Positions 15,653 to 60,342 are shown, counted from the first letter of the stretch. The stretch: DNA of 64,000 nucleotides from Candidatus Bathyarchaeota archaeon (GCA_043826455.1 JBDRQD010000030.1:61182-125181), one strand, 5' to 3'. Notes: a model not told the origin generated them from the sequence alone. Numbers and translations: made by a program.

Positions 15653-15965
15653 GAAAAGCATCAACCCTGAAAAAGATGAATTTTTTTCCGCCTTATCCCG
15701 GCGGGGGCGGGATAAGAGGCACGGACACACTGGGTAATGAGTCCACTGTGAAAAAACGTAGGGGGGTACTATATTATGACGAATTTTTCTACCATAAAAC
15801 GGGTCACTCGCCACCCGCGAGGCCAAAAAAACCCGGGGAACACACGTGAAAAAGGTAGGGGGGTACCAATTTTAGGAAGAGAAAACCTCCTAAAATAGGG
15901 GTCAGAGCCCCATACATGAGGCAAAAGAAGCCCATGACCACGACACTCACACCAAAGAAGATAAC
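15653..15965 (+). repeat. Dispersed non-coding element, copy A
   Basis: GAAAAGCAT..AGATGAATTTT, CTTATCCCG/CGGGATAAG hairpin, GTGAAAAAGGTAGGGGGGTA, 11-6-11 repeat at 15869-15896; homologous to ~59974-60342 (-). Confidence 0.8.
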
Positions 15966-16003
15966 TAAAATCCTCTGAATTAGGTTGCCTCGTTCCTATG
16001 TTG

Positions 16004-16080
16004 TTCAAGGAGGGCATCGGTCACACCTATAACTGGTTTATGTGAACTGGGAAAACATCAAACAGTCAGCCGAGTTCTAA
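16004..16080 (+). pseudogene. Diverged duplicate of the last 25 codons plus stop of the 13535-14530 epimerase
   Basis: ttcaaggagggcatcggtcacacctataactgg...aacatcaaacagtcagccgagttctaa versus 14453-14530; 1-nt deletion. Confidence 0.9.
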
Positions 16081-16117
16081 CTCAACAATAAAATAACTGT
16101 ACATCAATCTTAGACTG

Positions 16118-17197
16118 ATGGCTCTCGGCATCATCCTCGGCACCCGCCCCGAGATAATAAAGATGGGCCCCATAATACGCCTATGCGAGAAGAGGTCCGT
16201 CCCCTACTACCTGCTCCACACTGGCCAGCACTACAGCTACGAGATGGATCAGGCCTTCTTCAGGGACCTGGAGCTACCCGAGCCCAGGATCAACCTGAAC
16301 GTGGGCTCAGGCACCCACGCGGAGCAGACGGCCAGCATCATGGTCGGCGTAGAGAAGACCCTGCAGAAGGAGGACACAGGCGTAGCCCTCGTCCAGGGGG
16401 ACACCAACACCGTCCTGGCCGGCGCCTTGGCCGCCGCCAAGCTCCAGGTTCCAGTGGGCCATGTGGAGGCCGGGCTGCACAGCTACGACAGGGGGATGCC
16501 GGAGGAGATCAACCGGGTGGTAGCCGACCACCTGTCCGACTTCCTCTTCGCGCCCACAGAGGAATCCAAGAGAAACCTCCTCAAGGAGGGCATACCCGAT
16601 GAAAGGATCCATGTCACAGGCAACACAGTGGTGGACGCCGTCCACCAGAACCTGGAGCTGGCCAAGGAGAAGTCAACGATCCTGAAGAAGCTGTCCCTGG
16701 AGCCCGGCCAGTACATGGTGGTCACAGCCCACCGCGCCGAGAACGTCGACCGCAGAGACCGGCTCACAGGGATAATAGAGGGCCTTGGCCTAGTCGCGGA
16801 GCACCTGGACCAGCCCATCATCTACCCCGTCCACCCCCGGACACAGAAGATGATCAAGGAGTTCAGGCTGACGACCCGGAACCTCAAGATCGTTCAGCCC
16901 CTAGGCTACCTGGACTTCCTGGCCCTGGAGGCATCATCTAGCCTGGTCCTCACCGACTCCGGCGGCGTCCAGGAGGAGGCCTGCATACTGGGCGTCCCCT
17001 GCGTCACGCTGCGGGAGAACACGGAGCGCCCCGAGACCCTTCAGGTGGGCTCGAATGTCTTGGTCGGGGCAGAGCCGGAGAGGATACTCCAAGGAGCCTT
17101 GGAGATGAGCCGGAGGAAGAGGGGTTGGCCTAATCCCTTCGGGGACGGAAACGCGGCGGAGAAGATTATTAAAATTATCGAGGAATCCCGAAATTAA
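16118..17197 (+). CDS. wecB: UDP-N-acetylglucosamine 2-epimerase (non-hydrolysing)
   Basis: GTRPEIIK, HTGQHY, QGDT, HVEAG, PEEINR, TDSGG.QEEA, ENTERPE, PFGDG. Confidence 0.96.
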   Translation: MALGIILGTRPEIIKMGPIIRLCEKRSVPYYLLHTGQHYSYEMDQAFFRDLELPEPRINLNVGSGTHAEQTASIMVGVEKTLQKEDTGVALVQGDTNTVLAGALAAAKLQVPVGHVEAGLHSYDRGMPEEINRVVADHLSDFLFAPTEESKRNLLKEGIPDERIHVTGNTVVDAVHQNLELAKEKSTILKKLSLEPGQYMVVTAHRAENVDRRDRLTGIIEGLGLVAEHLDQPIIYPVHPRTQKMIKEFRLTTRNLKIVQPLGYLDFLALEASSSLVLTDSGGVQEEACILGVPCVTLRENTERPETLQVGSNVLVGAEPERILQGALEMSRRKRGWPNPFGDGNAAEKIIKIIEESRN

Positions 17198-17221
17198 CGT
17201 GTATTGGTACCAATACACGTT
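17196..17221. repeat. Palindrome copy 4, AACGTGTATTGGTACCAATACACGTT
   Basis: Perfect 26-bp palindrome overlapping the wecB stop. Confidence 0.92.
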
Positions 17222-17364
17222 TATCGACACTGGGTATGCCTGAGTCTCTAAGGTACGTACGTGTCATTGTCTGCGCTCTGCCTGGCTCCTAGCGACTGGT
17301 CTTGGATCAGGATGCAAAGTTCTTAACAGCCAAAAATAATGCTACAGGTGCGCGGTGATCCTGG

Positions 17365-18540
17365 TTGGCTTCTGCCCTCAAGAACATAAGGATAGTTGAC
17401 CTCACTCAGCACCTCTCTGGCCCGTTCTGCACGATGCTTCTGGCAGACATGGGCGCCGAGGTCTTCAAAGTGGAGCCCATCTGGGGCGACGCCTCTCGCA
17501 CATCCGCCCAGTACCCCACGGTGGAGGGGCATAACGCTTACTTCATGCACGTCAACCGGAACAAGAGGAGCATCGTGCTGGACCTAAAAACTGGGAAGGG
17601 CGTGGAGGCCCTGAAGAGGCTCGTCGAGGTCTCAGACATCGTCGTCGAGAACTTCAGGCCGGGCGTCATGGACAGGCTCGGCATAGGATACGAGGCGCTG
17701 AGAGAGATTAACCCAGGGATCGTCTACGCATCCATCTCAGGCTTCGGGCAGAGTGGCCCCTACGTCAAGCGACCATCCTTCGACATCATCGCCCAGGCCA
17801 TGAGCGGATGGATGTGGCTCAACAGCCGGGAGACCCGAGGCCTAAACAGCCAAGCCCCCATGGAGCCGTCGTGCCTAGCAGGAAGCCCGGGGGACACCAT
17901 ACCGGGCGTCTTCTGCGCCCTCAGCATCCTGGCGGCGCTGCTCCATAGACAGGCCACGGGCCGGGGGCAGAGGATCGACGTTGCCCAGACAGACTCCCTG
18001 ATGGCTGTTTCGGGGCTGAGCCTAATCCGATACCTCTACTCAGGCGGCGCCGCCGATGAGCGGGCCGGTCGACCCTCCACCCAGATCCATGGAGTCTATG
18101 AGGCTAGAGACGGGTACGTGGCTGTCCGCGTCATCGGAGACGATGCGATAAAGTCCGTGGCTGATGTGACCGGCGTAGATGTTGATGAAGTCAATCCTTC
18201 CTCCGGCGCCCTGCGAGACTGGTTCAAGCAGAGGAGCAGAGACCAGATAGTTGATCTCCTCGCCGAGAAGGTCCCGTGCGCGCCGGTGGTCACAGACGAG
18301 GAGCTGGTGCAGGACCCAAACGTCAAGGAGCGGGGGATGATCATCGAACGACGGCACCTTCAGGGCTTCACCTACCGAACCATCGCGACAGGCGTAAAGT
18401 TCTCTGAGACACCCACCCGAATCGAGCTCCTCCCCCCTGAGCTGGGGGCTGACACCGTCGACGTTCTCCGGCTGATCGGGTACGACGACGATGAGATCAG
18501 GGTCTTAATGGATGAGGGCGCGGCGCGTGGACTCGCCTGA
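17365..18540 (+). CDS. Family III CoA-transferase (CaiB/BaiF)
   Basis: SGPFC..LLADMGAEV.KVE..GD, NRNKRS..LDLK, ENFRPG, SISGFGQSGP, PPELG. Confidence 0.93.
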   Translation: MASALKNIRIVDLTQHLSGPFCTMLLADMGAEVFKVEPIWGDASRTSAQYPTVEGHNAYFMHVNRNKRSIVLDLKTGKGVEALKRLVEVSDIVVENFRPGVMDRLGIGYEALREINPGIVYASISGFGQSGPYVKRPSFDIIAQAMSGWMWLNSRETRGLNSQAPMEPSCLAGSPGDTIPGVFCALSILAALLHRQATGRGQRIDVAQTDSLMAVSGLSLIRYLYSGGAADERAGRPSTQIHGVYEARDGYVAVRVIGDDAIKSVADVTGVDVDEVNPSSGALRDWFKQRSRDQIVDLLAEKVPCAPVVTDEELVQDPNVKERGMIIERRHLQGFTYRTIATGVKFSETPTRIELLPPELGADTVDVLRLIGYDDDEIRVLMDEGAARGLA

Positions 18541-18590
18541 GAATGTTTCGCGCGAGAAGAATTAATGTAGCGAGTCACCCTCTCATCATC

Positions 18591-19580
18591 ATGGGTTCAA
18601 CGATCCCCCATCACACCGATGTTGAGAGCCTCGTCAGGCGCTCTTCACTGATCTTCCCGGTAAACGTGGAGAGGTTCGCCGAGAAGGCGCACCTGCGGGG
18701 GGCGGACTGCGTCATCATGGACTTGGAGGATTCCGTGCCTGAGGGTGAGAAGGACAAGGCGAGGAGCCTGATCAGAGGCTACATACCCGTCGTCGGTAAG
18801 GGGGGCGGGGACGTCGCGGTCCGGATCAACCGCCCCATCAAACAGGCGACACAGGACTTGGAGGCCTCCGTGTGGCGTGGGCTGACCTGCGTGTCTCTAC
18901 CCAAGGTCGAGTCGGCGGAGGAGGTCCGGCTGATAGACCAGATCATAACCGGCTTGGAGAGAAAAAGAGGGATGGGTGTCGGCACCGTACAAATGGCTAT
19001 AGCCGTGGAGACGGCGCTCGGCGTAGTCAGAGCCTATGAGATCGCGTCCGCCAGCCCGAGAACAGTGACCATGGGCGTTGGCGCAGAGGACCTGACCCAG
19101 GAGATGGGCGTCCAGACAACCAAGGAGGGCCAGGAGCTATGGTACGCCCGATCGAAGGTCCTCACGGATGCCTACGCTGCCGGTGTCCAGCCAATGGGGC
19201 TAGTAGGAGTTGAGCCCTTCACTCTGCAGGAGCCTGAGAGGGCCTACGACACTGCTTTAAACTCCCGCAAGCTGGGCTACAAGGGCGCCCAGTCCATCCA
19301 CCCGGCGCCTATCCTCTATCTAAACAAGGGCTTCTCCATACCCCCTGAAGAAGTCGACCAGATGAGGAGGACCCTAGAAGCCTTCGAGGAGGGGCTGAGG
19401 AAGGGGACGGCTTCCGTGAACGTGGACGGCAGGATGATAGACATAGCCTCAGCGGAGAGATGCAGGAGGGTCCTCAGGAGGGCAGACGCCATCACGGGTA
19501 TGGATAGGAGGAAGAGTGAGGCCCTGAAAGACCCTGACCTCGTTGAAAGTAAGCTCAGGACCGCGTTAGATGACATCTAG
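18591..19580 (+). CDS. CitE/malyl-CoA lyase-like acyl-CoA lyase
   Basis: DLEDSV, VRIN, LPKVES, ETALG, GAEDL, G.MID motifs. Confidence 0.9.
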   Translation: MGSTIPHHTDVESLVRRSSLIFPVNVERFAEKAHLRGADCVIMDLEDSVPEGEKDKARSLIRGYIPVVGKGGGDVAVRINRPIKQATQDLEASVWRGLTCVSLPKVESAEEVRLIDQIITGLERKRGMGVGTVQMAIAVETALGVVRAYEIASASPRTVTMGVGAEDLTQEMGVQTTKEGQELWYARSKVLTDAYAAGVQPMGLVGVEPFTLQEPERAYDTALNSRKLGYKGAQSIHPAPILYLNKGFSIPPEEVDQMRRTLEAFEEGLRKGTASVNVDGRMIDIASAERCRRVLRRADAITGMDRRKSEALKDPDLVESKLRTALDDI

Positions 19581-19653
19581 GCACGCTATCCGCGGGTGGT
19601 GCTCACCCGGAAAAGGGTTTTATGCTCACGTTCTCGCATAACAATGTTACTTC

Positions 19654-20559
19654 ATGCAAGAGGAGCACGGAATCGTCTTCGACGTCAAGCACTTCGCCGT
19701 CCACGACGGGCCGGGCATCAGAACCACGGTCTTCCTGAAGGGGTGCCCCCTCAGGTGCCTCTGGTGTCACAGCCCGGAGTCCCAGAGCCTCGCCCCCGAG
19801 ATCATGATCCACCCTGAGAGATGCATCGGATGCAAAGCCTGCGTGAAGGCGTGCCCCCAAGGCGCACTGAAGCACCCAGGCGACCCTGAGCCGGCGGGCT
19901 GCACCCACTGCGGGGCCTGCGCCCAGGCCTGCTACTCGGGCGCCAGAGTCCTGCTCGGGGCCAGCCTTACCGTCGAAGAGGTCATGATCTCGGTCAGGAA
20001 GGACAAGCGGCTCCATGAGGCCTCCGGGGGCGGAGTCACGATCTCGGGAGGTGAACCCACGCACCAACCCGGGTTCACCTACACGCTGCTCCAGGCCCTG
20101 AAGGAGGAGGGCTACCACACGGCGCTGGACACCTGCGGCTGCACCACGTGGGAGACGCTTAAGCGGATGCTACCCCTCACCGATCTATTCCTCTACGACC
20201 TGAAGCACCTCGATCCTGACACCCATCGCAGATTAACGGGCAGGGACAACGACCTGATCCTCTCAAACCTTAGACGGTTGTCCGAGATGGATGCCCGCGT
20301 CGTGGTCAGGGTACCCCTGATCCCGGGCCTCAACGACTCCGAGGAGCACCTGAAGAGCGTAGAAGGGCTCCTCAGGGGCCTGAACGTGGAGGCCGTCGAG
20401 ATCCTGCCGTACCACAGGCTGGGGGTGCCCAAGTACGAGTCCCTGGGCAGAAGGTACACTTTGGCCGATCTGGAGCCACACAGCGAGGCTCACCTTCTCA
20501 GAGTCCAGGAGCACCTGAGAGCCAACGGGTTGAACGTAGTGGTTGAGGGATTGATGTGA
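19654..20559 (+). CDS. Glycyl-radical enzyme activating enzyme (radical SAM with ferredoxin insert)
   Basis: HDGPGIRTTVFLKGCPLRCLWCHSPE; CIGCKACVKACP and CTHCGACAQAC; GVTISGGEP; LPYH. Confidence 0.95.
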   Translation: MQEEHGIVFDVKHFAVHDGPGIRTTVFLKGCPLRCLWCHSPESQSLAPEIMIHPERCIGCKACVKACPQGALKHPGDPEPAGCTHCGACAQACYSGARVLLGASLTVEEVMISVRKDKRLHEASGGGVTISGGEPTHQPGFTYTLLQALKEEGYHTALDTCGCTTWETLKRMLPLTDLFLYDLKHLDPDTHRRLTGRDNDLILSNLRRLSEMDARVVVRVPLIPGLNDSEEHLKSVEGLLRGLNVEAVEILPYHRLGVPKYESLGRRYTLADLEPHSEAHLLRVQEHLRANGLNVVVEGLM

Positions 20560-22814
20560 GTAGAGTGGATGCCATCAGAAGAAACCTGGACCGATACGAG
20601 GTCGTCGAGACACCGATAGTCAGATCCACCGTGTTAAAGGAGCCCGGCGTCGAAGCCAAACCCGTGATCATCAGGAAGGCGCTGGCCCTGGAGCGCATGC
20701 TGGAGGAGGCCCCGGTCCACATCTACCCCCACGAACTCATCGTGGGCATCCCCTTCAGAGAGAGGCCGAGCCCCGAGGACCCATCCAAACGGCTGATACT
20801 TCCGGAGAGCGTGTCAGGGCAGGGTTACACGGACTTCGCCAACAAGCTCATCGCCCTGGGCCACCGGGACGCCACCTATCACCCCGTGATCCAGTGCCTC
20901 AGCAGATACGGCGGCAGCGACATGTTCTGCGTGTTCCCCCACTACGCGACCTCCGAGGAGGTCGACGAGGCCAGGAGGCTGGGCCTTGACGCGAACTGCA
21001 ACCCGGGCCACCTCCAAGGAGGCCACGCCCAGGTGATCAAGCACGGCTGGAGCGGCCTCAGGAATACAGCAGAGGACCACCTCAGCCGGTTAAGCCCAAC
21101 GTCTGAGCACACCCAGAGGCAGGCCGCCTTCCTGGAGGCCGTCATCATCACGCTTCAGGCCGCCCAGGGCTACGCCCATAGATACGCGCAGCACGCCGAG
21201 GACCTGGCCAGAAAAAAGGCCTCCGGCCAGCGAAGGAGCGAGCTCGCCAAGATAGCTGAGGTGTGCAGGAACGTGGCGGTCAGGGCGCCTCAGACTTGGT
21301 GGGAGGCCTTGCAGCTCAACTGGTTCACGCACCTGATCAATCACACGCAGGGCGCCCACCAGCTTGGACGGTTCGATCAGTACATGTGGCCTGTGCTCAG
21401 ACGGCAGCTTGAGAGGGGAGAGACGACCATGGATGAGGCCCAGGAGCTCCTGGAGTGTCTCTGGCTCAAGTTCAGCACCTACACGGCCGTGGACATGGAT
21501 AACCTTCAGAACATAATCATCGGGGGCATGACCCCTGATGGGGGCGACGCCACCAACCCCCTCAGCTACATGTGTCTGGAGGCCACGGACAAGCTGGGCA
21601 CCATTGACCCCAAGTGGAGCATCAGAGTACACAAGGATAGCCCCCAGGAGTTCCTGAGCCGCGCCGCCGAGATAATAAAGAAGGGGGGAGCCGAGCCCGG
21701 CATATACAACGACGAGATAATCATCAAGGCCCTCACAGACACCGGGGTCCCCCTGGAGGACGCGCGGGACTACACCAACGACGGCTGCTCTGAGATCCTC
21801 GTCCAGGGCAGCACAAACCCTTGGGCCTTCGAGGCCAGGGTGAAGCTCCTCAAGTGCCTGGAGTCGACTGTCGACGGCATCCAAGACCTCCAGACCTTTG
21901 AGGAGCTCTACGCCTCCTTCAAGGACAGGGTGTCGGTCGCTGTCTCCCTCGCCGTCTCCAACGCCAACGTCCTCCAGGAGGCCGTGCCTAGGATAAGCCC
22001 GAACCCGTGGATCTCCGCGGGGGTCGAGGGCTGCCTGGAGAAGATGATGGACGTCACCGAGGGGGGCGCCAAATATAACTCGGCGGCTGTGTGCGTGACA
22101 GGCTTGGCGGACGCCGTAGACTCGCTGGCGGCCCTGAAGAAGCTGGTTTACGAGGATAAGCTCATCGCACCAGTGGAGCTCCTCAAGGCCTTGAAGGCAG
22201 ATTTCGAGGGGCATGAGCGCATGAGGCAGCTCCTCCTGAACAGGGCCCCCAAGTTTGGTAATGACGACGACTACGTGGACAGCATAGCCACAGACCTCGT
22301 TGAGCACCTGCACCGCGAGGTCACGAGGCACAGGAACCCGCGGGGAGGCGGGTACGTCCTGGGCCTGTTCAGCTACGGAGACTACATCGGCCACGGCCTG
22401 GTCACGGGCGCCACACCCAACGGCAGGAGGTCCGGGGACAGCATATGCCCCAACTTCTCCCCCAGCCCAGGCAGGGACAAGGCCGGGCCCTGGGCCGCCA
22501 TGAAGTCCACGGCAAAGGTCAACCAGGCCCTCACAGCGAACGGGAACGCCCTGGACCTGACAATACACCCCTCGGCCTTCACGGGGCCCCAGGGGACAGA
22601 GAACCTGGTCAGTCTGATACGCGCCTTCAACTCGATAGGGGGCATTCAGGTCCAGTTCAACATAGTCGACTCGGAGACCTTGAAGGCGGCGCAGCGTGAG
22701 CCCGAGAAGTACCAGAACCTGACGGTGCGTTTGTGGGGGTTCCCCGCCTACTTCACCAGACTGCCGAGGGAGTTCCAGGAACACCTCATAGCCAGGTCAG
22801 AGCACAAACTGTAA
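20556..22814 (+). CDS. Glycyl radical enzyme (PFL2/dehydratase-like), substrate unknown
   Basis: GRFDQY, Cys loop DGCSE, APKFGNDD, GATPNGR, QFN, Gly loop VRLWGFPAYF; GTG start overlaps the activase stop. Confidence 0.93.
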   Translation: MSRVDAIRRNLDRYEVVETPIVRSTVLKEPGVEAKPVIIRKALALERMLEEAPVHIYPHELIVGIPFRERPSPEDPSKRLILPESVSGQGYTDFANKLIALGHRDATYHPVIQCLSRYGGSDMFCVFPHYATSEEVDEARRLGLDANCNPGHLQGGHAQVIKHGWSGLRNTAEDHLSRLSPTSEHTQRQAAFLEAVIITLQAAQGYAHRYAQHAEDLARKKASGQRRSELAKIAEVCRNVAVRAPQTWWEALQLNWFTHLINHTQGAHQLGRFDQYMWPVLRRQLERGETTMDEAQELLECLWLKFSTYTAVDMDNLQNIIIGGMTPDGGDATNPLSYMCLEATDKLGTIDPKWSIRVHKDSPQEFLSRAAEIIKKGGAEPGIYNDEIIIKALTDTGVPLEDARDYTNDGCSEILVQGSTNPWAFEARVKLLKCLESTVDGIQDLQTFEELYASFKDRVSVAVSLAVSNANVLQEAVPRISPNPWISAGVEGCLEKMMDVTEGGAKYNSAAVCVTGLADAVDSLAALKKLVYEDKLIAPVELLKALKADFEGHERMRQLLLNRAPKFGNDDDYVDSIATDLVEHLHREVTRHRNPRGGGYVLGLFSYGDYIGHGLVTGATPNGRRSGDSICPNFSPSPGRDKAGPWAAMKSTAKVNQALTANGNALDLTIHPSAFTGPQGTENLVSLIRAFNSIGGIQVQFNIVDSETLKAAQREPEKYQNLTVRLWGFPAYFTRLPREFQEHLIARSEHKL

Positions 22815-22846
22815 TCCCCCGTCCATACAGCTTTCTTGGATCGGCT

Positions 22847-22996
22847 CTATTTCTTGGTCTGGGTGCCGCAGCAGCTGCATACTATGTATCCCTGTTTCAG
22901 CTTCCTCTCTATGAAGTCGCTGCACTCCTTCTTGTCCAGGAAGAGGGGCTGCCCACAATCCTTGCAGCGCTCCTCAGGGGTCTCAGCTGTCGACAT
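22847..22996 (-). CDS. Small zinc-finger protein (49 aa)
   Basis: CKDCG...C...CSCCG. Confidence 0.6.
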   Translation of the reverse strand: MSTAETPEERCKDCGQPLFLDKKECSDFIERKLKQGYIVCSCCGTQTKK

Positions 22997-23110
22997 CCCT
23001 GATATCTTCGAGTCGATGGTTAATAACTTGTACCATAAAAGCGCCACATCGCATACGAGACAATTGTGTAGTTATTGTTGTCGTTATCTAGAAGAAACGC
23101 GTGTGTCCAG

Positions 23111-24799
23111 TCAAAGTTGTCTCCCCTGGGGTAATGTCCTGTACTGGGATATGGGTGCCAACTCGTACCTATCTATCAGCACGTCTATGATGGCGGGTTT
23201 ACCTGAGGCGAAGGCGGACTGTATGGCCTCCTTCAGTTCGCCTGGTCTATCGATTCTCTGGCCGTAGCAGTTGAATGCCTCGGCCACCCGCCCATAGTCT
23301 ACGTCGATGAAGTCTGATGATCTCAGCGCCTTTCCCTGGCCTCTCCACTTGAACCCGTAGTGGAGCATCCCCAGGGTGACGTTGTTGAAGACCACGGCCA
23401 CGAAGGGCTTGTCGCAGCGCAGGGCGGTCTCCAGCTCTGCTATGTGGTAGGCGACGCCGCCGTCCCCCGTCACGTCCAGCACCTTCCTGTTCCCGGCGGC
23501 GAACTTGGCGCCGATAGCCGCCGGGAGACTCCACCCCAGCGTCCCCGCGGCCCTTATGTAGGTCCTCCCGGGGGCGGCCAACGGGTAGAGAACCCCCGTC
23601 CATGCCGCCATTTGCCCCGTGTCGGCGACGAGGATATCCTGCTCGCCTAGAACCTGCCTGATCTCCTTGATGACGCGATGGGGTTTGATGGGCACCGCAT
23701 CGGAGCTCATCACAGCAGAGGCCTGGTCGCTCCACTCCTTCTTCAACGCCTCCACGTGTTCAAGGTACTGCCTTTTCTGGGGCTTATCCATCATCTTCCT
23801 CAACACTTTGTGAAGATCTCTGACCCCATTCTTGGCGTCGCATACCATTCTTGACGCCACATTGTAGTTCCTGCCAATGGTCTCTGCCTCGATGTCGAGT
23901 TGTAGTATGGTGGCGTCCTGCCCGGGCACGGTCCAGTTGTCCGTTGCCATCCCCCCTGCTCTGGAGCCGATAAAAAACACGACATCAGCGTCGTCCACTA
24001 CCTTGTTCGCCGTCGAGCTCGAGTATCTACCCACCACACCCACGGACAGCGGGTGCTCGTCTGGGATAGCCCCTTTTCCGCTGAGAGTCGTAGCCACAGG
24101 TATAAAGTAGGACTCAGCGAGCTTGATGAGTTCGTTCCAGGCACGTGATACCATCACCCCGCCGCCCGCAACTATCACTGGGCGCTGAGCTTTGGCGAGG
24201 ATCTCCGCCGCCTTCTTCACGTCCTCTGGGTCCGGGCTTGTTCTCGCCGAGGGGTACGTCTTACACCTCAGATCAGCGTACGGCTCAGGAACGTCGGCTA
24301 TACTATTTGCGGCGTCGTAGTGAAGATTGATGTGAACTGGCCCAGGGCATCCGCTTGTAGCGATTATGAAGGCGTCCCGGGTGATCTCGGCCGCTCTCTC
24401 AGCCTGGTAGATGTGGGCGTTCCACTTTGTGGTGGGCTCAAAGAAGGGCATCTCGTCCAGCTCCTGGTACTGGAACTTGTACAGCTCGGGGACGTTGGTT
24501 GAGCCCGTGAGAGCTATGACGGGCGTGCACGTCCAGTAAGCCTCGGATATACCGGCTGCGAGGTTAATTGCGCCCGGCCCAGCCTGCCCATAGCATACGC
24601 TCGGCTCGTAGCTTACCCGAGAGTAGCCGTCAGCCATGTACGCCGCCGCTTTCTCACTCCGCGCCAATACGAGGTCGATGCCCGCCTCCTCCATCTCGAT
24701 GAAGAGGGAGATCATGCCTCCTGAGACGTGGAAAAAGTGTTTTACTCCATGATTTTTCATGGTTTCCGCCACAGCCTTCGCTCCACTCATGTGAACCAT
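23111..24799 (-). CDS. TPP-dependent enzyme, acetolactate synthase-like family
   Basis: E.AAAYMADGY.R, GPGAIN, GPVH, GDGG...NN TPP motif. Confidence 0.92.
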   Translation of the reverse strand: MVHMSGAKAVAETMKNHGVKHFFHVSGGMISLFIEMEEAGIDLVLARSEKAAAYMADGYSRVSYEPSVCYGQAGPGAINLAAGISEAYWTCTPVIALTGSTNVPELYKFQYQELDEMPFFEPTTKWNAHIYQAERAAEITRDAFIIATSGCPGPVHINLHYDAANSIADVPEPYADLRCKTYPSARTSPDPEDVKKAAEILAKAQRPVIVAGGGVMVSRAWNELIKLAESYFIPVATTLSGKGAIPDEHPLSVGVVGRYSSSTANKVVDDADVVFFIGSRAGGMATDNWTVPGQDATILQLDIEAETIGRNYNVASRMVCDAKNGVRDLHKVLRKMMDKPQKRQYLEHVEALKKEWSDQASAVMSSDAVPIKPHRVIKEIRQVLGEQDILVADTGQMAAWTGVLYPLAAPGRTYIRAAGTLGWSLPAAIGAKFAAGNRKVLDVTGDGGVAYHIAELETALRCDKPFVAVVFNNVTLGMLHYGFKWRGQGKALRSSDFIDVDYGRVAEAFNCYGQRIDRPGELKEAIQSAFASGKPAIIDVLIDRYELAPISQYRTLPQGRQL

Positions 24800-24961
24800 A
24801 AAACGCCACCCACTTGTGTCCTACTTGTGATAGTAACAAGTAACCTGTAAACACTATATGTTTATTGCATATCCGCGCTAGCAGAAAATATATTTTATCT
24901 CATCCAACGCACTCCGATCATCTGGGTTAACCCTATAATCTAGGGCGTCCACGTATCAGTC

Positions 24962-50832: not shown

Positions 50833-50944
50833 TCTGGGCCTGAAGACGGCCTCACCTATTTTTACCAATTTGAAATATTCCTGACGAAGGTTTGGATAAA
50901 AAATTTTAAGGCTACATTGAATCTTTCGGCTTACATGAAAGCCG

Positions 50945-51727: not shown

Positions 51728-51831
51728 GGGGGTCGTTACAGAAGTTTGTTGTCTCTATTATTTCATGGTTCTGGGAAGCGGGAAGGGATGCTGGTGGAGG
51801 TTACCCGGTGAGATAAACGTAGGCTGGGGAG

Positions 51832-53466
51832 TTAGGGCCTCAAGGTCTTTCCAGGTAGTGAGCCTGTGTGCTCGTTATCTTCTACCACAAGTACTCCGTT
51901 TACGTAGACTCTGTGTATGCCGCTTGGGTAAACTCTGGGAGCCATGAACGTCGCGTTGTTCCTGATCTCATCAGGGTCCCATAGTATGATATCCGCCCAC
52001 ATCCCGGGCCGTAGCAATCCTCTATCCATCAGACCCATACGCTGCGCGGGCAGTCCCGTACATTTTCTGACGGCGTCCTCAAGCCCAAGCAGCCTCTCCT
52101 CCCTTACCCATTTCTGGAAGAAGTACGGGAACTGGCCGTAGGCTCGCGTCGTTACCTCACTGACCGGTTTATCTGAGAGAGGTCCCTTCGGTGAGTCGTT
52201 GGCAGAGTCTATCGCCACGCTGCAATTATGGTGAAGTAAGGAGAAGTCGGTGTCCCATTGGCTTGTGATGGCTACTGCGCCCCAGGCTTTCTGGAATCCT
52301 TCTCCTTCCCGGACAAGTAACTCGAATAGGGCATCGAAGGGATCGAGTTTCATCCTCACGCCGATCTCCCTTAGATTCATTCCGTTGTACTCCGGGCTGT
52401 TATCTGTGTGAGCCACCATGAAACGGTCCCAAGAATCTAGGGGTCCGCGGACGCCCGCTAGGATGGGGCCGTACTGGCGGTTAATGAGATCGCTTCTAAG
52501 ATGCTCCTTAACCGCGGGGTCTGACAGCATCTCGTATGTGAACTTGGCTCCTTTTTTCAGGTACTTTGAGCCAATTATGATGGGCTCGATGAGGGAGCAG
52601 CCGCACCAGCCGTACCCGTTCTCAATGGTCCACGGGACCTGGTCAAAGGCGATGTCCAGTCCTCTGAGCCTTGCCTCATCACACAGGTCCACGATGTGCT
52701 TGGTCTTCCCGTCTGATGGAAAACGTGCTCCCCAGTGCACGCCCTCGACACGCACACCTGACTCCTCGCCTATCCGTATGGCTTCCTGTGCAGCCTCAAC
52801 AACCTTTACGTCCCTGCTTCTGATGTGGGTGGCGTAGAGGCCGCCATAGTGTGCCACGGTCTTGCATAGATCGATGAGGGCTTCGGTTGGTGTGAGGGTC
52901 TGTGGATCGTATTCGAGTCCTGAGCTGAGTCCAAAGCTTCCTTCCTCAAGGGAAGTTTCTAGAAGCGTCTTCATCTCTTCTACCTCGTCCTGTGTGGGGG
53001 CGCGGTCGAAGGCGTCCATCCCCATGGCGGAGATTAACAGGTTCCCGAGCCCCGTCAAGGTTCCCGCATTAAGGGCTAGTCCTTTCGCTTCCAGAACGTT
53101 AAGGTATTCGCTGGTCGTATACCAGTCTACCTCGAACCCACGTAATTCCTTTATGATTCCTTTTCCTAACTCGTTAAGCGGTGCAGCTGAGGAACCACAG
53201 TGGCCGTTCAGGACGCTAGTTATTCCTTGCCTGGTGAAGCTGTCTGCCTCAGGATTCACGATGAGTGAGAAATCACTGTGTGAGTGAATATCTATAAAAC
53301 CGGGCGAGACCGCCAACCCTAAAGCATCGATGGTCTCAGCGCTTTCGCCTGTAACCTTACCTACGCTGGATATCCTCCCATCTTTGACAGCGAGGTCGCC
53401 GCGGAACCACGGGTTACCTGTTCCGTCGAGAATTTTAACGTTCTTAATCAGGAAATCATAATCCAT
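51832..53466 (-). CDS. D-aminoacylase-family amidohydrolase
   Basis: SPGFIDIHSHSD, QGIT..L.GHCG, SSGLEY.P, RAYG.FP, DRGLLRPG.WAD. Confidence 0.9.
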   Translation of the reverse strand: MDYDFLIKNVKILDGTGNPWFRGDLAVKDGRISSVGKVTGESAETIDALGLAVSPGFIDIHSHSDFSLIVNPEADSFTRQGITSVLNGHCGSSAAPLNELGKGIIKELRGFEVDWYTTSEYLNVLEAKGLALNAGTLTGLGNLLISAMGMDAFDRAPTQDEVEEMKTLLETSLEEGSFGLSSGLEYDPQTLTPTEALIDLCKTVAHYGGLYATHIRSRDVKVVEAAQEAIRIGEESGVRVEGVHWGARFPSDGKTKHIVDLCDEARLRGLDIAFDQVPWTIENGYGWCGCSLIEPIIIGSKYLKKGAKFTYEMLSDPAVKEHLRSDLINRQYGPILAGVRGPLDSWDRFMVAHTDNSPEYNGMNLREIGVRMKLDPFDALFELLVREGEGFQKAWGAVAITSQWDTDFSLLHHNCSVAIDSANDSPKGPLSDKPVSEVTTRAYGQFPYFFQKWVREERLLGLEDAVRKCTGLPAQRMGLMDRGLLRPGMWADIILWDPDEIRNNATFMAPRVYPSGIHRVYVNGVLVVEDNEHTGSLPGKTLRP

Positions 53467-53806
53467 GATTCACTGTTTCCTGTACGGTATTTAATATCGA
53501 TGCAAGCTAAGTTGCTATGCTGACTGTATCAGGTTAACACCATGGCGCACGCGTGATGTACATGATACCTAGTGATGGAAAGAGAGAAAAGTAGAATAAT
53601 AAAGTGAAATGTTGGGGTTTAGGGGCATAATTTTATCCCAACTAATAACGTTAGAATTTTAGAAGCTCACGCTTTTCTCCATGAGGGTTGATAATAGTCA
53701 GTATATGCTCAATAAGGATACTGTATGCGATAGAGTGTTGATGAGTATATATTAAATCTACATAGAGTATTTCTTGTAGTTTGAAGTTCAACGAAGGCTA
53801 ACATCC

Positions 53807-54646
53807 ATGTTTAAAGATATTTATCAACAGCAGCCAAGGGAAATCCGATTTATCTTGAAAATTGCAGTAACCCTCACACTGACCCTACTATTTATCGTGG
53901 TCAGTAGAATCAGTTTGATATTCCTAGTTCAACAAATTTTCATTTTCCAGGGGGCATCATCATCCATTGCATATCAAAATGCGCAAATCTTTGTAGCTGA
54001 ATCATCTATGGGCTAAGCTGTTGCGAGTTTCTTAGACGCTACTTTAATACTCGTACTGGTCTTCGTCTCAGTAACACATATAGAGAGACGTAAGTTTCTC
54101 ACGGCTGACATTGGTTTGGATTTAAATCGTAAAACCTTACCCTTCGTGGCAGTTGGATTGGCTACTGGAAGCAGCTTATTCCTTGGAGCTGTTGTGTTTG
54201 GATTATTTCTAGGCACACAAGAGTTACCAATGTTTCCTAATCTCGTTCAGTGGCCAACCATAAACACATTATTTGCTACGATAAGCTTTTGTATTCTGAA
54301 TAGCTTCTGGCAGGAGACTGTGTTTCGAGGATACTTGCAGACTCGTGCTGTTGAGGAATATGGTAGATTATTTGGAGTTCTAACAGTATCAGTGGTGTTT
54401 GTCGTTCTTCATGGACTAGTACAAACATTAACATTCATGGGAATAATCTCAGGTCTGTTACTTTTCAGCTTCATAGGACTGCTGTATGATAAAACAAGGT
54501 CACTCTACTTGGTGACTGCGATTCATGCCGTTCTAAACTTCCTGCCGACACTTTTCAACATATTGTGGCAAGGGCAGGAAACGGTCGTCACATATGGTAT
54601 AGCATTAATACTACTGATTCTGGCGATACGCCCCATGCGTGAGTGA
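53807..54646 (+). pseudogene. CPBP (CAAX protease/Abi) family gene interrupted by an in-frame TAA at 54014-54016
   Basis: ORFs 53807-54016 and 54116-54646 share one frame; QE..FRGYL, F..LH, HA..N motifs; AT-richer than flanks. Confidence 0.75.
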
Positions 54647-54719
54647 TTTTATTCAGAGTGAAAAAAGGGGTTGGGTTTGAGGCAATATTTTTTCCCAACT
54701 TCCCACGTGGTTGGTTGGG

Positions 54720-55097
54720 CTACGTTTTTACTCCCACAAGCAGGAGAACCGTCCTCCTGTCGCCCGTGTTATAGAACCCGTGCGGGACGTTCACCGGCAG
54801 AAACACCGCATCCCCCGCCTTCACCTTCCTCCTCTCCTCCCCCACCTGAACGGTGCCTCCGCCCCTCAGGACGAAGTAGACCTGCTCCGCGTCCCTATGC
54901 GTGTGCATGTTGTTGGTCTCCCCAGGCTCCAGTGTGATCCTGGCGAAGTGGCGGAAACTCTTCATGGGCTCAGGCTTCCTAGCATTGAACACCTTACCGC
55001 TCTCGTCCTCCTGCCAGAATATCTGGTAGAGGGCCGCCGCCCCGTGGGCGTCCACGAGGGGCTTCTTCTTGATTGATGTGACCCGTTTAACGTGCAT
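54720..55097 (-). CDS. Cupin domain protein
   Basis: LEPGE...HTH...EQVYFVL.G.G...GD.VFLP..VPHG. Confidence 0.9.
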   Translation of the reverse strand: MHVKRVTSIKKKPLVDAHGAAALYQIFWQEDESGKVFNARKPEPMKSFRHFARITLEPGETNNMHTHRDAEQVYFVLRGGGTVQVGEERRKVKAGDAVFLPVNVPHGFYNTGDRRTVLLLVGVKT

Positions 55098-55155
55098 ACA
55101 GTTTAAGACGCCGCGAACATGTATAAGCTCTGGGTAGGGTCTCCCGCACCTCTGC

Positions 55156-55770
55156 TCACAGCCTCTTAGACGCGGCAGCTAACCTGCTCACGGCCAGGTT
55201 CGTGAGGAAGTTGATCCGCTCCACGTCCAGGTAGCCCTGGACGGTCTCATCGTAGAAGACCCTCGCGTCGGCCTCGAACTCAGCGGACTCGCAACTCAGA
55301 ATAATGGTCAGTGGCACAAGGGGAAGCGCCTCCAACCGGACAGCCACGTCGCCATAAGGAAACTCTACGCGCTCACCCTCCAGTCTCTCGGCGCACGCCA
55401 CCAGGGCCCCGGGGTCGCCTCTGAACCTCTCAATGATCCTGTCCCTCGTCCTCCTGTTGTCCAGGTCCCCGAACCGGGCACCCCTAAGCTGCTTATACGA
55501 CATCAATCTCCCCGGGGTCTCAACGTGCTCAGCCTCGCTGTACCCTGAAAGCACATAGAAAACCGTCTGAACCATGTACCTGCTCCAGGGGTCCTCACCC
55601 CTCAGCCGGCCCCCCGTCAGATCATCTGTCACCGACCCGTCTCCGAGGTCCACACTCAACCCGAGAAACCTCAGCTCACCCTGGTCGGGGAACCCCAGCC
55701 TGCCCCTCAGACCGACCAACTTGTCCTTGCAGGCATCCCAGCTCCATAACCCCGAGGGTTGAACAGTCAC
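55156..55770 (-). CDS. DUF3786-like protein
   Basis: YGD.AV.L.ALP.VP....L....EF.A...V.YD.....YL..E. Confidence 0.65.
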   Translation of the reverse strand: MTVQPSGLWSWDACKDKLVGLRGRLGFPDQGELRFLGLSVDLGDGSVTDDLTGGRLRGEDPWSRYMVQTVFYVLSGYSEAEHVETPGRLMSYKQLRGARFGDLDNRRTRDRIIERFRGDPGALVACAERLEGERVEFPYGDVAVRLEALPLVPLTIILSCESAEFEADARVFYDETVQGYLDVERINFLTNLAVSRLAAASKRL

Positions 55771-56057
55771 GACACCATGATGGGCGGTTCACGTATAATG
55801 CTGTTACTAAGCAGTGTGAAAACAGGAAAAAGAACCCGAAGCCTAATGGAAAAGAAACTGTATCTAAAATTTAGCTAAATGCAATCCAAAAAAACATCAC
55901 ACTCTTCCACACAGCTGTCATCAACCCCCCTAATCACCAAATTACAAGCTACATACAACAAACCCTGGACCCCCCCCAAAATCGACAATTCCCAGCCACT
56001 GGGACCAAACCCTACAAAAGGTGGAGGTGCGAACGCCCGCGTCCACACATGACACCA

Positions 56058-56177
56058 CTACTTAGCTACCTTCACCATGTTCTCGCCGCAGCAAACCAGG
56101 GTCCCGGCTCCGCTCTCCAACACCTTGACCTTGTTGCCGCATATCTCACAGAGGTAGACCTCATTAACCTTGGTCAT
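56058..56177 (-). CDS. Stand-alone desulforedoxin-type Fe(Cys)4 protein, 39 aa (not in ORF track)
   Basis: MTKVNEVYLCEICGNKVKVLESGAGTLVCCGENMVKVAK matches Y.C..CGN.V.V...G.G.LVCCG..M. Confidence 0.9.
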   Translation of the reverse strand: MTKVNEVYLCEICGNKVKVLESGAGTLVCCGENMVKVAK

Positions 56178-56247
56178 GGGACAAATAACGGAGCCGACAC
56201 GTTTATACTTGTAGTTCAAGCTACGAAAAAACTGAAGCGGTCCACAT

Positions 56248-56793
56248 TCAGCCCTGCTCCTCGCTGGTGATGGTCCGCTTCGCTATCTCCACCAGGTCCT
56301 CAGGAGGCACAGGCTTCATCAGCACCTTCCTTATCTTCTCCTCCTTCTCCAGCTCCTCCTTGTAGCTGCTATACCCCGTAATCATGATGACCTTCATGTC
56401 CGGCTTCCTAAGCCTGATCCGCCTAGCCAGCTCATCCCCCAGCATATCAGGCAGGTTCATGTCCAGGATCACCAGATCGTAATGCAGCTTACTGGCCTTG
56501 AACAGAGCGCTGACGCCGTTGTTAGCCGAGTCCACGTTGAAGCCCACGTTCTCCAGGATGAGCTTGAAGGTGTTCACCAGGTTGGGGTCGTCATCCACAA
56601 CAAGAATACTCTTGAGCTTACCAACCTCTGAATGGGCGACGCCCTTACCCTCTGAAGCCTGGGCCTGAGCGCCGCCGTTCACCGAGTTCTTAATGTCCTT
56701 AACCTGATCAGCAAGCGACTGAATCTTGGAGTCCTGCTCCTTCAGCTTAGCCAGAATTAGGCTTAACACCTCATCAATCTTCAGGTTGGACAT
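56248..56793 (-). CDS. Response regulator receiver with N-terminal coiled coil
   Basis: ILVVDDD, LVILD..LPD..G, MITGY, KP. Confidence 0.9.
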   Translation of the reverse strand: MSNLKIDEVLSLILAKLKEQDSKIQSLADQVKDIKNSVNGGAQAQASEGKGVAHSEVGKLKSILVVDDDPNLVNTFKLILENVGFNVDSANNGVSALFKASKLHYDLVILDMNLPDMLGDELARRIRLRKPDMKVIMITGYSSYKEELEKEEKIRKVLMKPVPPEDLVEIAKRTITSEEQG

Positions 56794-56998
56794 GGTGCAC
56801 CGGCTATTGCTGCTTTTTCCATGTAAACCCGTATATTAACGATGATCGTCACACCGCTCTCTATCTGAGTTCTATAACTGTGGTTGGCTCAACGAACCTA
56901 TCCGTTGAAGTGGTAGAACAGTATTCACTACCCCGTTTCCGTAATAGCTTAATGAGTCGCTAAAAAAAGACCACCGTTCACTCACAGGTGAACAAGCC

Positions 56999-57511
56999 TT
57001 GATGCGGACACACGACACACTTCAGGAGTGGGTGAACGCCCACAAAGCCAAGAGCCTAAAGCAGCTCAAAGAGGTATACACAGAGGACTCCATCTTCCAC
57101 CGCACAGGAACAAAGGCCACCATGGCCGAGGACCCGGCCCAGAAGGTGGCCGAGTTCGACCACGCCACAAAGACGCAGCGCTCCGCACGACCCTCCTGGG
57201 TCATGGGCGACGAGATCCGCGCCGAGGTGACGGAGAGGAGCGCACTACTAGAGGCCGCGGGGATACATGAGGCCCGCTACGTTGGCCAGTTCATCATCAG
57301 AGGCACCCAGATAGAGTCAGTGCAGCTCGAGCCCACACCTGAGACAAGGCAGGCCACTGACCAGGCCCTGTCACAGTTCATCGAGTGGGCTTCTAAGAAG
57401 AGGCCCGAGCGTCTAGCTCAGGTCATGCCTGGGGGGAGGCTGAGATACGACGCGAAGTCCGGGCGCCAACTACTGAAACTGCTACGTGAGTGGAGAAAGT
57501 CCACCGAGTAA
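56999..57511 (+). CDS. Hypothetical protein, possibly NTF2/SnoaL-like
   Basis: W..A.....L.....YTED.IF pattern. Confidence 0.5.
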   Translation: MMRTHDTLQEWVNAHKAKSLKQLKEVYTEDSIFHRTGTKATMAEDPAQKVAEFDHATKTQRSARPSWVMGDEIRAEVTERSALLEAAGIHEARYVGQFIIRGTQIESVQLEPTPETRQATDQALSQFIEWASKKRPERLAQVMPGGRLRYDAKSGRQLLKLLREWRKSTE

Positions 57512-57608
57512 CCTGGACCACCCCATTTTTCTTGTCAACCATGACGAGGCGCCTTAGGCTGCAAGGATCAAACAACATTTATTATCAGAGGCTCCCCCAA
57601 ATGAAACA

Positions 57609-58970
57609 ATGATTTTCGAGAAAATCAAGTCCCAAGTCGTCTCACACCTCTCATACCTCATAGGCTCAGAGGCTGAGGCCGTGGTAGTGGACCCCCAGCG
57701 AGACTGCAGAGTCTACGTGGACATCGCCCAGCGGGAGGGGCTCCTGATCAAGCACATCTTCGAGACACACCGCAACGAGGACTATGTAATAGGGTCGCTG
57801 GAGCTGTCCGCCCTTACTGGCGCCAGCGTCCACCACGGGCCATGGCCCGAGTACAGGTACGGCGAGGTACTCAGGGACGGCCAGACTTTCCAGGTAGGCA
57901 AACTCGAGGTGAAGGCCATCCACACCCCCGGACACACCCCCGGGTGTATGAGCTACTCTGTAGCCGACAAGGCCACAGGGGGAGAAACCGTGCTGGTCTG
58001 TACCGGGGACACCCTATTCGTGAACGAGGTGGGCCGAACCGATTTCGGGGGCACCAATAAACGCAGGGAGTGGTCGGAGAACCTATACAACAGCATCCAC
58101 AGGAAGCTGCTGCCCCTGGGAGACCACGTTGTCATCTGCCCCGCTCACGGCTCAGGAAGCGTGTGCGGCTCGGGGATAGCGGCCCGGGAGATCAGCACCA
58201 TCGGCGCAGAGCGCCGGATGAACCCCTACCTCAAGATGAGCAAGGAGGAGTTCGTCTCCCACAAGATCAACGAGCACCACCACTACGCCCCATACTTCAC
58301 AATGATGGAGAAGCTCAACGTAGAGGGGGCTCCACCAGTAGGCTCCGGCCCCAACCCCCCTCCCCTGACACCCAAGAAGCTACAGGAGATGGTGGAGGCC
58401 GGGGCGGTGGTTGCAGACACTAGGCCGCCCCCCGCCTATGGAGCAGGCCACATAGCGGGCTCCTACAGCCTCCCCCTGGCCCGGCTAGGAATCGGGGGCT
58501 TCGTGCTACCCTATGACAAGCCTATACTGCTCGTGCTGGGTAATCAAAGCCAACTCGACTACACGGCTAGGAGCCTCATGAGGATGGGCTACGACAACCT
58601 AGGAGGCTACCTGGGCGGCACAATAGTAACTTGGTACAAGGAGGCGTTGCCAGTCACGACTCTCAGCCTCATGACTGTCACGGACCTGAAGGAGAGGATG
58701 AGCCAGGAAGAGTGGTTCATCCTGGACGTGAGGAGCGAGGACGAGCACAGCCAGGGCCACATAGAGGGAAGTCTCAACCTCTATGCTGGGACACTGGATG
58801 ACAACCACAGGAAAATACCCAGAGACAAGCCCGTGGCCGTCACATGCAAGACCGGGACCAGGTCAAGCTTCGCCTGCAGCATACTGCTGAGACGCGGCTT
58901 CAAGAACCTGCACAACGTCCTGGGAGGCATGGACGCCTGGAAGAGTAAGGGCTACCCGACAACCAAGTGA
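57609..58970 (+). CDS. MBL-fold hydrolase with two rhodanese domains (persulfide dioxygenase/Blh-like)
   Basis: VVDPQRD, ETHRNED, HTPGHT, TGDTLF..EVGRTD, PAHG.GS.CG; GHI.G and CKTGTRS. Confidence 0.9.
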   Translation: MIFEKIKSQVVSHLSYLIGSEAEAVVVDPQRDCRVYVDIAQREGLLIKHIFETHRNEDYVIGSLELSALTGASVHHGPWPEYRYGEVLRDGQTFQVGKLEVKAIHTPGHTPGCMSYSVADKATGGETVLVCTGDTLFVNEVGRTDFGGTNKRREWSENLYNSIHRKLLPLGDHVVICPAHGSGSVCGSGIAAREISTIGAERRMNPYLKMSKEEFVSHKINEHHHYAPYFTMMEKLNVEGAPPVGSGPNPPPLTPKKLQEMVEAGAVVADTRPPPAYGAGHIAGSYSLPLARLGIGGFVLPYDKPILLVLGNQSQLDYTARSLMRMGYDNLGGYLGGTIVTWYKEALPVTTLSLMTVTDLKERMSQEEWFILDVRSEDEHSQGHIEGSLNLYAGTLDDNHRKIPRDKPVAVTCKTGTRSSFACSILLRRGFKNLHNVLGGMDAWKSKGYPTTK

Positions 58971-59038
58971 CAACAATAATGAGGGCGAAGGTCAGGTAGT
59001 AAACAAGGTTTTTACATCGCTGTTCAGTAACCCACATA

Positions 59039-59500
59039 ATGGGTCCTCTAGGCGTTACCGGATACTTGCTGGGCGGACTGATAATCGGCCTAGCCGTATC
59101 CATGGTTTACATCCTGACTGGCTTACACGCCACCCAGAGCAGCTTCTTCAGCACGACCCTGAGCTACTTCAGTAAGCTCCCCTACTTCCGGAGAAAAAGT
59201 CTCCTCGAGTCCAGAGATTGGAGGCTGTACTTCGCGGCCGGCGTCATCCTCGGCGCCCTAATATATACTGTTACCATTTCACCTGACGGTTTCTGGGTGT
59301 CCTCTATCCCATGGTGGCGCCTTCTGTTAGGAGGACTGCTTGTCGGCTTTGGCACGAGGCTTTCCAGCGGGTGTACTTCTGGCCACGGCATCAGTGGCTT
59401 GGCGTCTCTGTCAACTACGTCCTTGATAGCGGTAGTCACCTTCATAGTCGTCGGCGTCATCACAGCTAATATCATGATGCTGCTGGGGGTGACGCCATGA
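59039..59500 (+). CDS. YeeE/YedE-family sulfur transporter subunit
   Basis: GGLIIG, GGLLVGFGTRL.SGCTSGHGI.G. Confidence 0.9.
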   Translation: MGPLGVTGYLLGGLIIGLAVSMVYILTGLHATQSSFFSTTLSYFSKLPYFRRKSLLESRDWRLYFAAGVILGALIYTVTISPDGFWVSSIPWWRLLLGGLLVGFGTRLSSGCTSGHGISGLASLSTTSLIAVVTFIVVGVITANIMMLLGVTP

Positions 59501-59904
59501 ACCGCCGAAACATGGTCCTTTTCATTGGAGGCCTCGTGTTCGGCTTCGGTCTAGCCGTAGGTGGGATGGCTAAACCGGAGGTCGTGCTAAGCTTCCTGCA
59601 GTTGAAGGACATGGGGCTGCTACTGCTGATGGGGTCGGCCGCGGGCACCGCCTTCATAGCCATTAACATTGTGCCCAGGTTTCTGGAGAAGCCCTTACTG
59701 GGGGGCGAGTTCAAGCCAAGGACGCGTGAGCTGACCAGGAACACATTGATTGGGGCCGCGATATTCGGGATCGGGTGGGGCCTGTCGGGGCAGTGCCCAG
59801 GCTCCGCGTTGTCCAGCTTAGGTCTTGGTAATATTCCCATCATCATCGGCATAGCGGCTATGTTCGCTGGGGCTTACGTGATGGGTCGGTTCTTCGGCTC
59901 CTAA
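59497..59904 (+). CDS. YeeE/YedE-family sulfur transporter subunit
   Basis: GLVFGFGL...GM..P..V..FL, G..IFGIGWGL.G.CPG. Confidence 0.9.
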   Translation: MNRRNMVLFIGGLVFGFGLAVGGMAKPEVVLSFLQLKDMGLLLLMGSAAGTAFIAINIVPRFLEKPLLGGEFKPRTRELTRNTLIGAAIFGIGWGLSGQCPGSALSSLGLGNIPIIIGIAAMFAGAYVMGRFFGS

Positions 59905-59973
59905 GCCATCTTCAGTCTCCTTGCGAGATTAAACCCCGAGCGTGATCTCAGGTATTACTATATATGATTCGGG

Positions 59974-60342
59974 TTATCTGTCATGGTCATCGGTCTCTCG
60001 GTACTCGGGGCTTCATTTTAGAAGGTTTTTTCCTCCTAAAATCGATACCCCCTACCCTTTTTCACATCAGGCTCTCCATCACGCCGTGCTTTATGTGTTG
60101 AACGTACCGTGTTTTTGTATGGAATGGACAGCGTTTTTGCGTAGATTCATGCGGCGTCGGACCGGTTCCGCGGCTCCTTTTGGCGTGGGGCACCTGTTTC
60201 CGGTTTTTCTTGCTCTACCCCCTCCCCCCTCTCTCGGGAGCTTCTGCGCTGTTGCGGTGGGCGTAGCGTTTTCCGGGGGTGGCTTATACCCTCTAGGAGG
60301 GTATAACAAGGAAGAAAATCCATCTCCTGCTTCATGCTTTTC
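59974..60342 (-). repeat. Dispersed non-coding element, copy B
   Basis: Reverse complement reads GAAAAGCAT..AGATGGATTTT, TTATACCCTC/GAGGGTATAA hairpin, GTGAAAAAGGGTAGGGGGTA, 11-6-11 repeat at 60015-60042. Confidence 0.8.

Follow-up and report, generated by a model that had tools for sequence, protein, structure and literature searches.

A gene-less repeat family with IS5-type ends in a Bathyarchaeota archaeon: very probably a type II miniature inverted-repeat transposable element

Background

The window analysed here is a 64,000-nucleotide stretch from the draft genome of a Candidatus Bathyarchaeota archaeon (GCA_043826455.1, JBDRQD010000030.1:61182-125181). It contains two copies of a non-coding repeat in opposite orientation, copy A and copy B. 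What kind of element is this, and is it a new one? The original prediction, made from the sequence alone, named three options: a non-autonomous mobile element, a structured RNA, or a cis-acting site for recombination or replication. The comparisons below point to the first. A and B are very probably two of about 55 gene-less repeats which form a type II miniature inverted-repeat transposable element (MITE) family, whose copies were dispersed in trans by an archaeal IS5-family DDE transposase. This assignment follows from the ends, the target duplications, the copy number, the empty sites, a matching autonomous IS5 element and the lack of similarity to that element in the interior. The repeat is likely an ordinary hitch-hiking MITE rather than a new kind of system.

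Copy number and distribution

The genome of the window (G000) is a draft of 2.95 Mb in 81 contigs. Copies A and B, used as queries, find 55 merged loci in it; with copy B, dozens of further loci are matched, many at E<1e-30. A family profile built from 15 aligned copies finds 59 loci (20,750 bp in total) and has no match in the reversed genome. The similarity of A and B that was originally noticed is therefore far above chance. Eight of the 59 profile loci touch contig ends and some of these are halves of one copy, hence the estimate of about 55 copies. The description of the element as present twice, inverted, holds for the window, where A and B are the only profile matches, but not for the genome.

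Copies are intergenic. None of the 59 profile loci has more than 30% of its length inside a called gene (2649 genes, simple gene caller). The open reading frames (ORFs) overlapping A and B had been dismissed as spurious; this location, and the lack of any protein remnant described below, support the dismissal. Spacers between convergent genes are enriched for copies (17/47, versus 186/1228 spacers) and spacers between divergent genes are depleted of them (5/47, versus 393/1228), as would be expected if insertions into promoters are purged.

Of 31 other genomes in the genus, four (G029, G013, G008 and G019) give clear family matches. G013 has 13 family loci, mostly partial, in the 1.66 Mb examined. 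The exact left-end 22-mer has no match in the species-genome collection, from which near genomes may be left out; it occurs at seven metagenome loci, none of which has a transposase match. Identity between copies is low, with a median of 71% and a best value of 92% for pairs with at least 200 shared columns. Two copies at assembly breaks (contig ends C16, C17, C3 and C37 of G000) share an identical 58-nt stretch, which suggests recent duplication or gene conversion. Four sequencing runs give contig pieces only. Element-like pieces pile up in one DNA run and no junction bypasses the element, a result that is uninformative either way.

Several related sequences were also seen. An isolated end-like motif, AGAGGTTTTGATTAACC, lies at about 5184-5200 of the window on the minus strand, with no family profile match around it. 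Three copies (G000 C36:49400-49650, C46:60730-60980 and C77:2360-2510) have a second, A+C-rich repeat next to their 3' part or in its place (CACCACCGCCACC..GGTGGCGGTGATG..CCCCCCCTCCCCCC). Diverged intergenic repeats with the G-tract and core motif of the family are found in G011 (L069), G027 (L070), G017 (L071) and G020 (L072). Those of G011 and G027 lie between the same two genes, and one G017 repeat bears a GAGG..GATTATC end. These are possibly older sister MITE families.

Ends and partner element

Copies with both ends measure 269-657 bp and are bounded by 16-bp terminal inverted repeats, GAGGTTTTCGATTAAC / GAGGATTTTGATTATC (consensus of 23 left and 23 right ends). An example of an intact copy is G000 C57:39101-39551. 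The original description of the element was incomplete in that it overlooked both these repeats and the target duplications.

The 16-bp end pattern was searched for in 401 genomes of the class, 70 of them in the same family. It is present in 37 of the 401 and in 23 of the 70. Facing pairs of ends lie 1236 bp apart in G112 and 1210 bp apart in G201. G112 belongs to the family of the window genome, and the host of its element is probably a member of the Bathyarchaeia. The G112 element is flanked by a TATG/CATA 4-bp duplication and has one ORF of 312 aa, at L116:1717-2655 on the minus strand. The encoded protein scores 230.4 bits against NF033581, the IS5-family transposase model (cut-off 140), and has DUF772 and DDE_Tnp_1 domains; an identical protein is recorded for a Candidatus Bathyarchaeota archaeon (L342). 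Among 71 genomes of the family, 27 have a homologue. At the 29 homologue loci examined, both ends are found in 15, ten of which have an exact 4-bp duplication. The partner elements are 1.18-1.24 kb, single-ORF DDE elements with GAGG/GAGA ends; the 4-bp duplication and G(A/G) ends would fit subgroup IS5.

The ends of the G112 element match those of the MITE at 14/16 and 16/16 positions, in the same polarity. The original prediction had stated beforehand that an undescribed system would be refuted if the ends matched those of a known insertion sequence family, and this is the outcome found. Of the three options named at the outset, that of a non-autonomous mobile element holds. Relatives occur in other archaea, mostly methanogens, and have related ends and 4-bp duplications (21 of the 30 for which an end pair could be assigned, out of 35 tried); where ends are correctly called they match the MITE ends at 8-14/16 positions. 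The nearest named plasmid matches are methanogen IS5 transposases (57%) and the IS5-like ISAzo41 (36%).

Could the repeat be a decayed gene, or an internal deletion product of IS5 itself (a type I MITE)? The 24 bp at each end do follow the IS5 ends in the same polarity. However, similarity is restricted to these ~16-24 bp, and 15 IS5 elements searched with the family profile give no match at E<=10. A tblastn search of the 2649 called proteins and the transposase against 53 copies gives just a 14-aa overlap with an adjacent ORF call. An origin of this kind is accordingly most improbable.

The partner itself is only a remnant in G000. It lies at C32:11125-12440, broken and rearranged, as two stop-containing fragments, one with the left end; a genome-wide scan of G000 with the end matrices finds no facing pair around a transposase. 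Searches of G029, G013, G008 and G019, all drafts, give no transposase match. Other transposases of G000 (6 DDE_Tnp_1, 0 DDE_Tnp_1_2 and 1 DDE_3 matches) were considered as partners and rejected, as their end repeats, where found, begin GCGC or CGCG and not GAGG. ISAzo13 has no match in G000; it has none in control genomes either, and the search is hence uninformative.

Target duplications and empty sites

An exact 4-bp target duplication flanks 6 of the 17 two-ended G000 copies, whereas about zero are expected when the flanks of different copies are cross-paired. One further copy among the 17 has a 5-bp duplication. In G029 and the metagenome loci, 6 of 10 two-ended copies have a 4-bp duplication; among these is an orthologue of a G000 copy included in the count above. 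Contig halves C17 and C3, which have a 58-nt overlap, show TAGA on both sides.

Sites also differ between relatives. The site of copy B is empty in seven relatives from the genus, and the other 8 of the 15 non-self loci hold one flanking gene only. The flanking genes nearly abut in the relatives, with 79-83 nt in the measured segment versus 606 in G000. A C15 copy is common to G000 and G029 and missing in G013; a C48 copy is missing in G013 and G008. The flanking genes of copy A are not adjacent in G008 or G013.

Several observations weigh against a type II MITE moved by an IS5 transposase. No exact 4- or 5-bp duplication is present at 10 of the 17 two-ended copies, and ends are doubtful in 3 of the 17. 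The window copies themselves lack a perfect duplication, with a 3/4 match and decayed ends in B and a single end in A. The empty sites are too diverged for a single target copy to be read. In the MITE-bearing genomes G000, G029, G013, G008 and G019, which are drafts and 64-98% complete, no intact transposase was found. Palindromes persist across three unlike module types, which may reflect protein binding, termination or repair by template switching.

On the proposed mechanism, the IS5 DDE transposase would bind GAGG(A/T)TTT(C/T)GATTA(A/T)C at the ends and mobilise the element in trans. A 4-bp staggered cut, mostly in A/T-rich intergenic DNA, would be followed by insertion. The transposition burst is probably old, given the ~71% pairwise identity, the several sites common to the closest relative and the presence in G000 of a broken transposase only. 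Later decay would have removed ends (as in A), deleted the centre (the 270-bp type) and added tandem A/G-box modules to a number of one to three, and recombination between copies would have exchanged segments.

Anatomy of the element

From the left end GAGGTTTTCGATTAACCGTG, a full copy runs through a stretch rich in purines, then a T tract and palindrome 1, into a central part that contains a G-tract and the conserved core. The 3' part consists of 1-3 tandem modules, each an A/G-box with a palindrome, and the right end (reverse complement GAGGATTTTGATTATCTTCTTT). A 270-bp type of copy lacks the central part. Copy A is of this type, with two modules and its left end gone; the best left-end score within 15301-16100 is -0.2. 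Copy B is full length and located between convergent YeeE/YedE-like and upstream genes. Its left end has a 4-bp deletion and its right end is decayed (Table 1).

Table 1. Features of copies A and B (window positions)
Feature	Position	Strand	Evidence
Copy A, short-type MITE, 5' end lost, no central part, two A/G-box modules	15653..15975	+	profile E 1.8e-15; alignment
A palindrome 1, CTTATCCCG-N7-CGGGATAAG, C allele, after T tract	15692..15716	+	
A first A/G-box module, TGTGAAAAAACGTAGGGGGGTAC and imperfect palindrome	15747..15800	+	
A second A/G-box module with TTTTAGG..CCTAAAA palindrome (the 51-bp block)	15846..15896	+	
A right terminal inverted repeat, GATAACTAAAATCCTC	15960..15975	+	right-end matrix score 30.0
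Copy B, full-length MITE, 439 bp, decayed ends	59963..60401	-	profile E 3.3e-105
B left flank TGTA, probably the left copy of the target duplication	60402..60405	-	3/4 match to right flank
B left terminal inverted repeat, GAGGTTTC, then 4-bp deletion relative to the family	60390..60401	-	
B palindrome 1, TTATACCCTC-N3-GAGGGTATAA, A allele	60284..60306	-	
B central G-tract GGGGGGAGGGGGTAG, absent from A	60215..60229	-	
B conserved core (..CAAAAACGC.GTCCATTCCATACAAAAA..), with matches in the diverged repeats found elsewhere in the genus	60086..60150	-	
B single A/G-box module with palindrome	60015..60065	-	
B right terminal inverted repeat, decayed, GATAACCCGAATCATA	59963..59978	-	matrix score just 5.7
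B right flank TATA, probably the other copy of the target duplication, mutated	59959..59962	-	

Most of the shared blocks first reported for A and B are present in both: the two palindromes, GAAAAGCAT, the AGATG..TTTT.TCC block and ATGACC.GACA/GATAAC. The 51-bp block (the second module of A and the single module of B) is 84% identical between the copies and is the longest inverted repeat of the window. The predicted extents need adjustment; A has no left end, and B reaches ~60 bp further 5' than claimed. The supposed common G-rich tract is not homologous. Since A has no central part, a different segment was meant in each copy: the central G-tract in B and the A/G-boxes at 15751-15770 and 15848-15867 in A.

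Selection had been argued from linkers that differ while motifs and pairing are kept. This argument is weak. The linker differences reflect deletion and module shuffling, and the two hairpin forms are alleles found over many copies, split 7:7 in 15 aligned copies, so that the compensatory change was probably one event. All four combinations of hairpin and central alleles are seen (10, 8, 7 and 4 copies), which points to recombination between copies.

The hairpins raise the question of whether the repeat is a multiplied gene for a conserved structured non-coding RNA. In 15 copies, pairing of palindrome 1 amounts to 94% and two pairs are changed on both sides; three different module sequences each retain a hairpin (51 modules, mean z -1.85). 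However, the stability of the module hairpins does not differ between the strands (z -1.85 and -1.85, p 0.86), which fits DNA symmetry rather than RNA, and the main compensatory pair of palindrome 1 is the single allele split described above. The consensus fold of the whole element is weak (-15.5 kcal/mol, covariation term -0.18). Rfam has no match in the window at gathering score, and none at E<=1 in six loci that carry full copies. A gene for an RNA would not be expected to show inverted ends, duplications and empty sites. An RNA gene is thus very unlikely, and the structured RNA option is unsupported by the Rfam and strand results. A transfer RNA scan of the window finds none; a sigma-70 promoter and terminator scan of B gives shuffle level, although such a scan is unsuited to archaea.

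A replication or recombination cis-site has also been considered, either as boxes with G-strings like the origin recognition box (ORB) or as a REP/BIME-type mosaic moved by an HUH transposase. The tandem A/G-boxes with their G run and the mosaic palindromes may be likened to ORB G-strings and BIME organisation. HUH transposition does not produce target duplications of this type, and the 4-bp duplications are therefore a misfit with REP/BIME-RAYT. Nor is a cis-site expected in ~55 copies that differ between close relatives and are bounded by IS5-type ends and 4-bp duplications. On copy distribution, ends and duplications, a cis-site origin has very little probability, and the replication site proposed at the outset is unsupported.

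Strand skew around copies

Base composition at four-fold sites was measured around the copies, and filled sites were compared with G013 (1150 orthologue pairs, 1.66 Mb of a ~2.4-Mb draft). This bears on an extended form of the type II MITE reading, with which it is compatible: the element could be a MITE and, in addition, a local strand-specific mutator under which ~1 kb of DNA on both sides shifts towards A+C on the element's own strand. Structures in the G-tract that leave the other strand exposed would be one route. Such a mutator is unlikely, although less so than the alternatives weighed above.

There is an A+C excess on the element strand, both downstream (34/47 positive, mean +0.069, p 1e-4) and upstream (31/47, +0.055, p 0.03). 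Compared with element-free G013 orthologues, filled sites have an excess downstream (20/27, +0.040, p 0.01) and upstream (17/22, +0.075, p 0.002). The position-matched excess is +0.035 at filled sites (23/35, p 0.018) and -0.001 at the empty orthologues. The copies themselves drift to A/C (36/53, p 2e-4), with the proviso that changes shared by a subfamily are not independent.

On the other hand, the polarity is small and two-sided; the form of a one-directional mutator was tested and is unsupported. The downstream excess is that predicted by regression to the mean (residual +0.003, p 0.73), and the per-element residual has p 0.08. Strong zones (excess >0.2) occur on 39 of 388 element-free sides and on 0 of 35 element sides with orthologues. 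Element-free spacers likewise lie in coherent skew zones (r 0.27, n=676). In the reciprocal test with G013 copies, 3 of 7 sides are positive and one site is ~0.9 A+C in G000 and G013 alike. The strong skew zones do not originate from the element.

Orientation-biased insertion is a known alternative; PMC3971601 demonstrates it in bacteria, and not for most IS5 subgroups. The data do not separate an element that is the source of the small two-sided polarity from orientation-biased insertion. Kilobase-scale strand-skew zones are common in G000 without the element, and the IS5 elements L155-L184 have, by eye, an A+C-rich 5' end and a G+T-rich 3' end. If the polarity were caused by the element, the local skew zones of these genomes would become testable. 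If the mutator were real, an IS5-dependent MITE with G-tract and palindrome modules would leave a heritable, oriented compositional scar on neighbouring Bathyarchaeia genes.

Neighbouring features

Copy A lies close to a repeated gene end. The 3' 78 bp (14453-14530) of an NAD-dependent epimerase gene (13535-14530) are repeated just after the copy, at 16004-16080, with ~86% identity and a 1-bp gap. The two repeats bracket copy A and an RHH/ParE-like toxin-antitoxin pair (14602-15110). This layout resembles what an island, once integrated at the 3' end of a gene, would leave as a remnant.

Elsewhere in the genus, copies are split by a two-gene module, VapBC-like by eye (G000:C31:8145-9574; also L280 at G013:C19 and L020 at G019:C82). 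G000 and G013 share this site, which adjoins a PCNA-like gene. The 3' end of the PCNA-like gene is present twice in G013, around a second module which is MNT/HEPN-like. The ends of the split copies are decayed, so there is no sign of cargo moving with the element.

Two further repeats are found in the window. Positions 2723-3035 hold a tandem repeat of degenerate 11-nt units of the GGTTTCC/TCAGG type. The operator-like palindrome TATTGGTACCAATA occurs four times (1299-1322, 3409-3432, 10711-10749 and 17187-17216), with a longer 30-bp match in two of the four occurrences.

Relation to known systems

Type II MITEs of prokaryotes are typically <500 bp, with inverted ends of 4-30 bp and direct repeats that decay with age; they are intergenic, include many truncated copies, resemble insertion sequences at the ends only and have internal stem-loops, as summarised in PMC10969869. 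The archaeal MITEs listed there are from Sulfolobus, halophiles and Desulfurococcus, and the type II examples include SM1-SM4 of Sulfolobus solfataricus with 25-44 copies each. The window element is like these in size, inverted ends, decaying duplications, intergenic location, truncations, insertion sequence likeness at the ends only, and stem-loops. It differs in having its own sequence and a Bathyarchaeia host, and in not being A+T-rich. It also reaches up to 657 bp via its 1-3 A/G-box palindrome modules, and is mosaic in its allele combinations. Compared with IS5-family elements (NF033581), it has the same ends and 4-bp duplications but no transposase.

There is a broader likeness to REP/BIME, ERIC, Correia, RUP and BOX sequences, which are also dispersed intergenic mosaics with palindromes. 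Correia and RUP belong to the IS630 type and duplicate TA at their targets; REP relies on an HUH enzyme. The window element differs from these in its IS5 ends and 4-bp duplications.

Full-text literature searches on Bathyarchaeia and Bathyarchaeota yielded no description of a MITE, a non-autonomous element or IS5. A set of 18,091 automatically called archaeal MITEs has been presented (bioRxiv 10.1101/2024.01.18.576219); the main text of that work does not contain the term 'Bathyarch', and its supplement may contain the family of the window.

The family is ordinary in kind. What it adds is a MITE family and its likely transposase for a large uncultured archaeal class, and the ends together with the transposase could be used as a transposon tool or strain marker.

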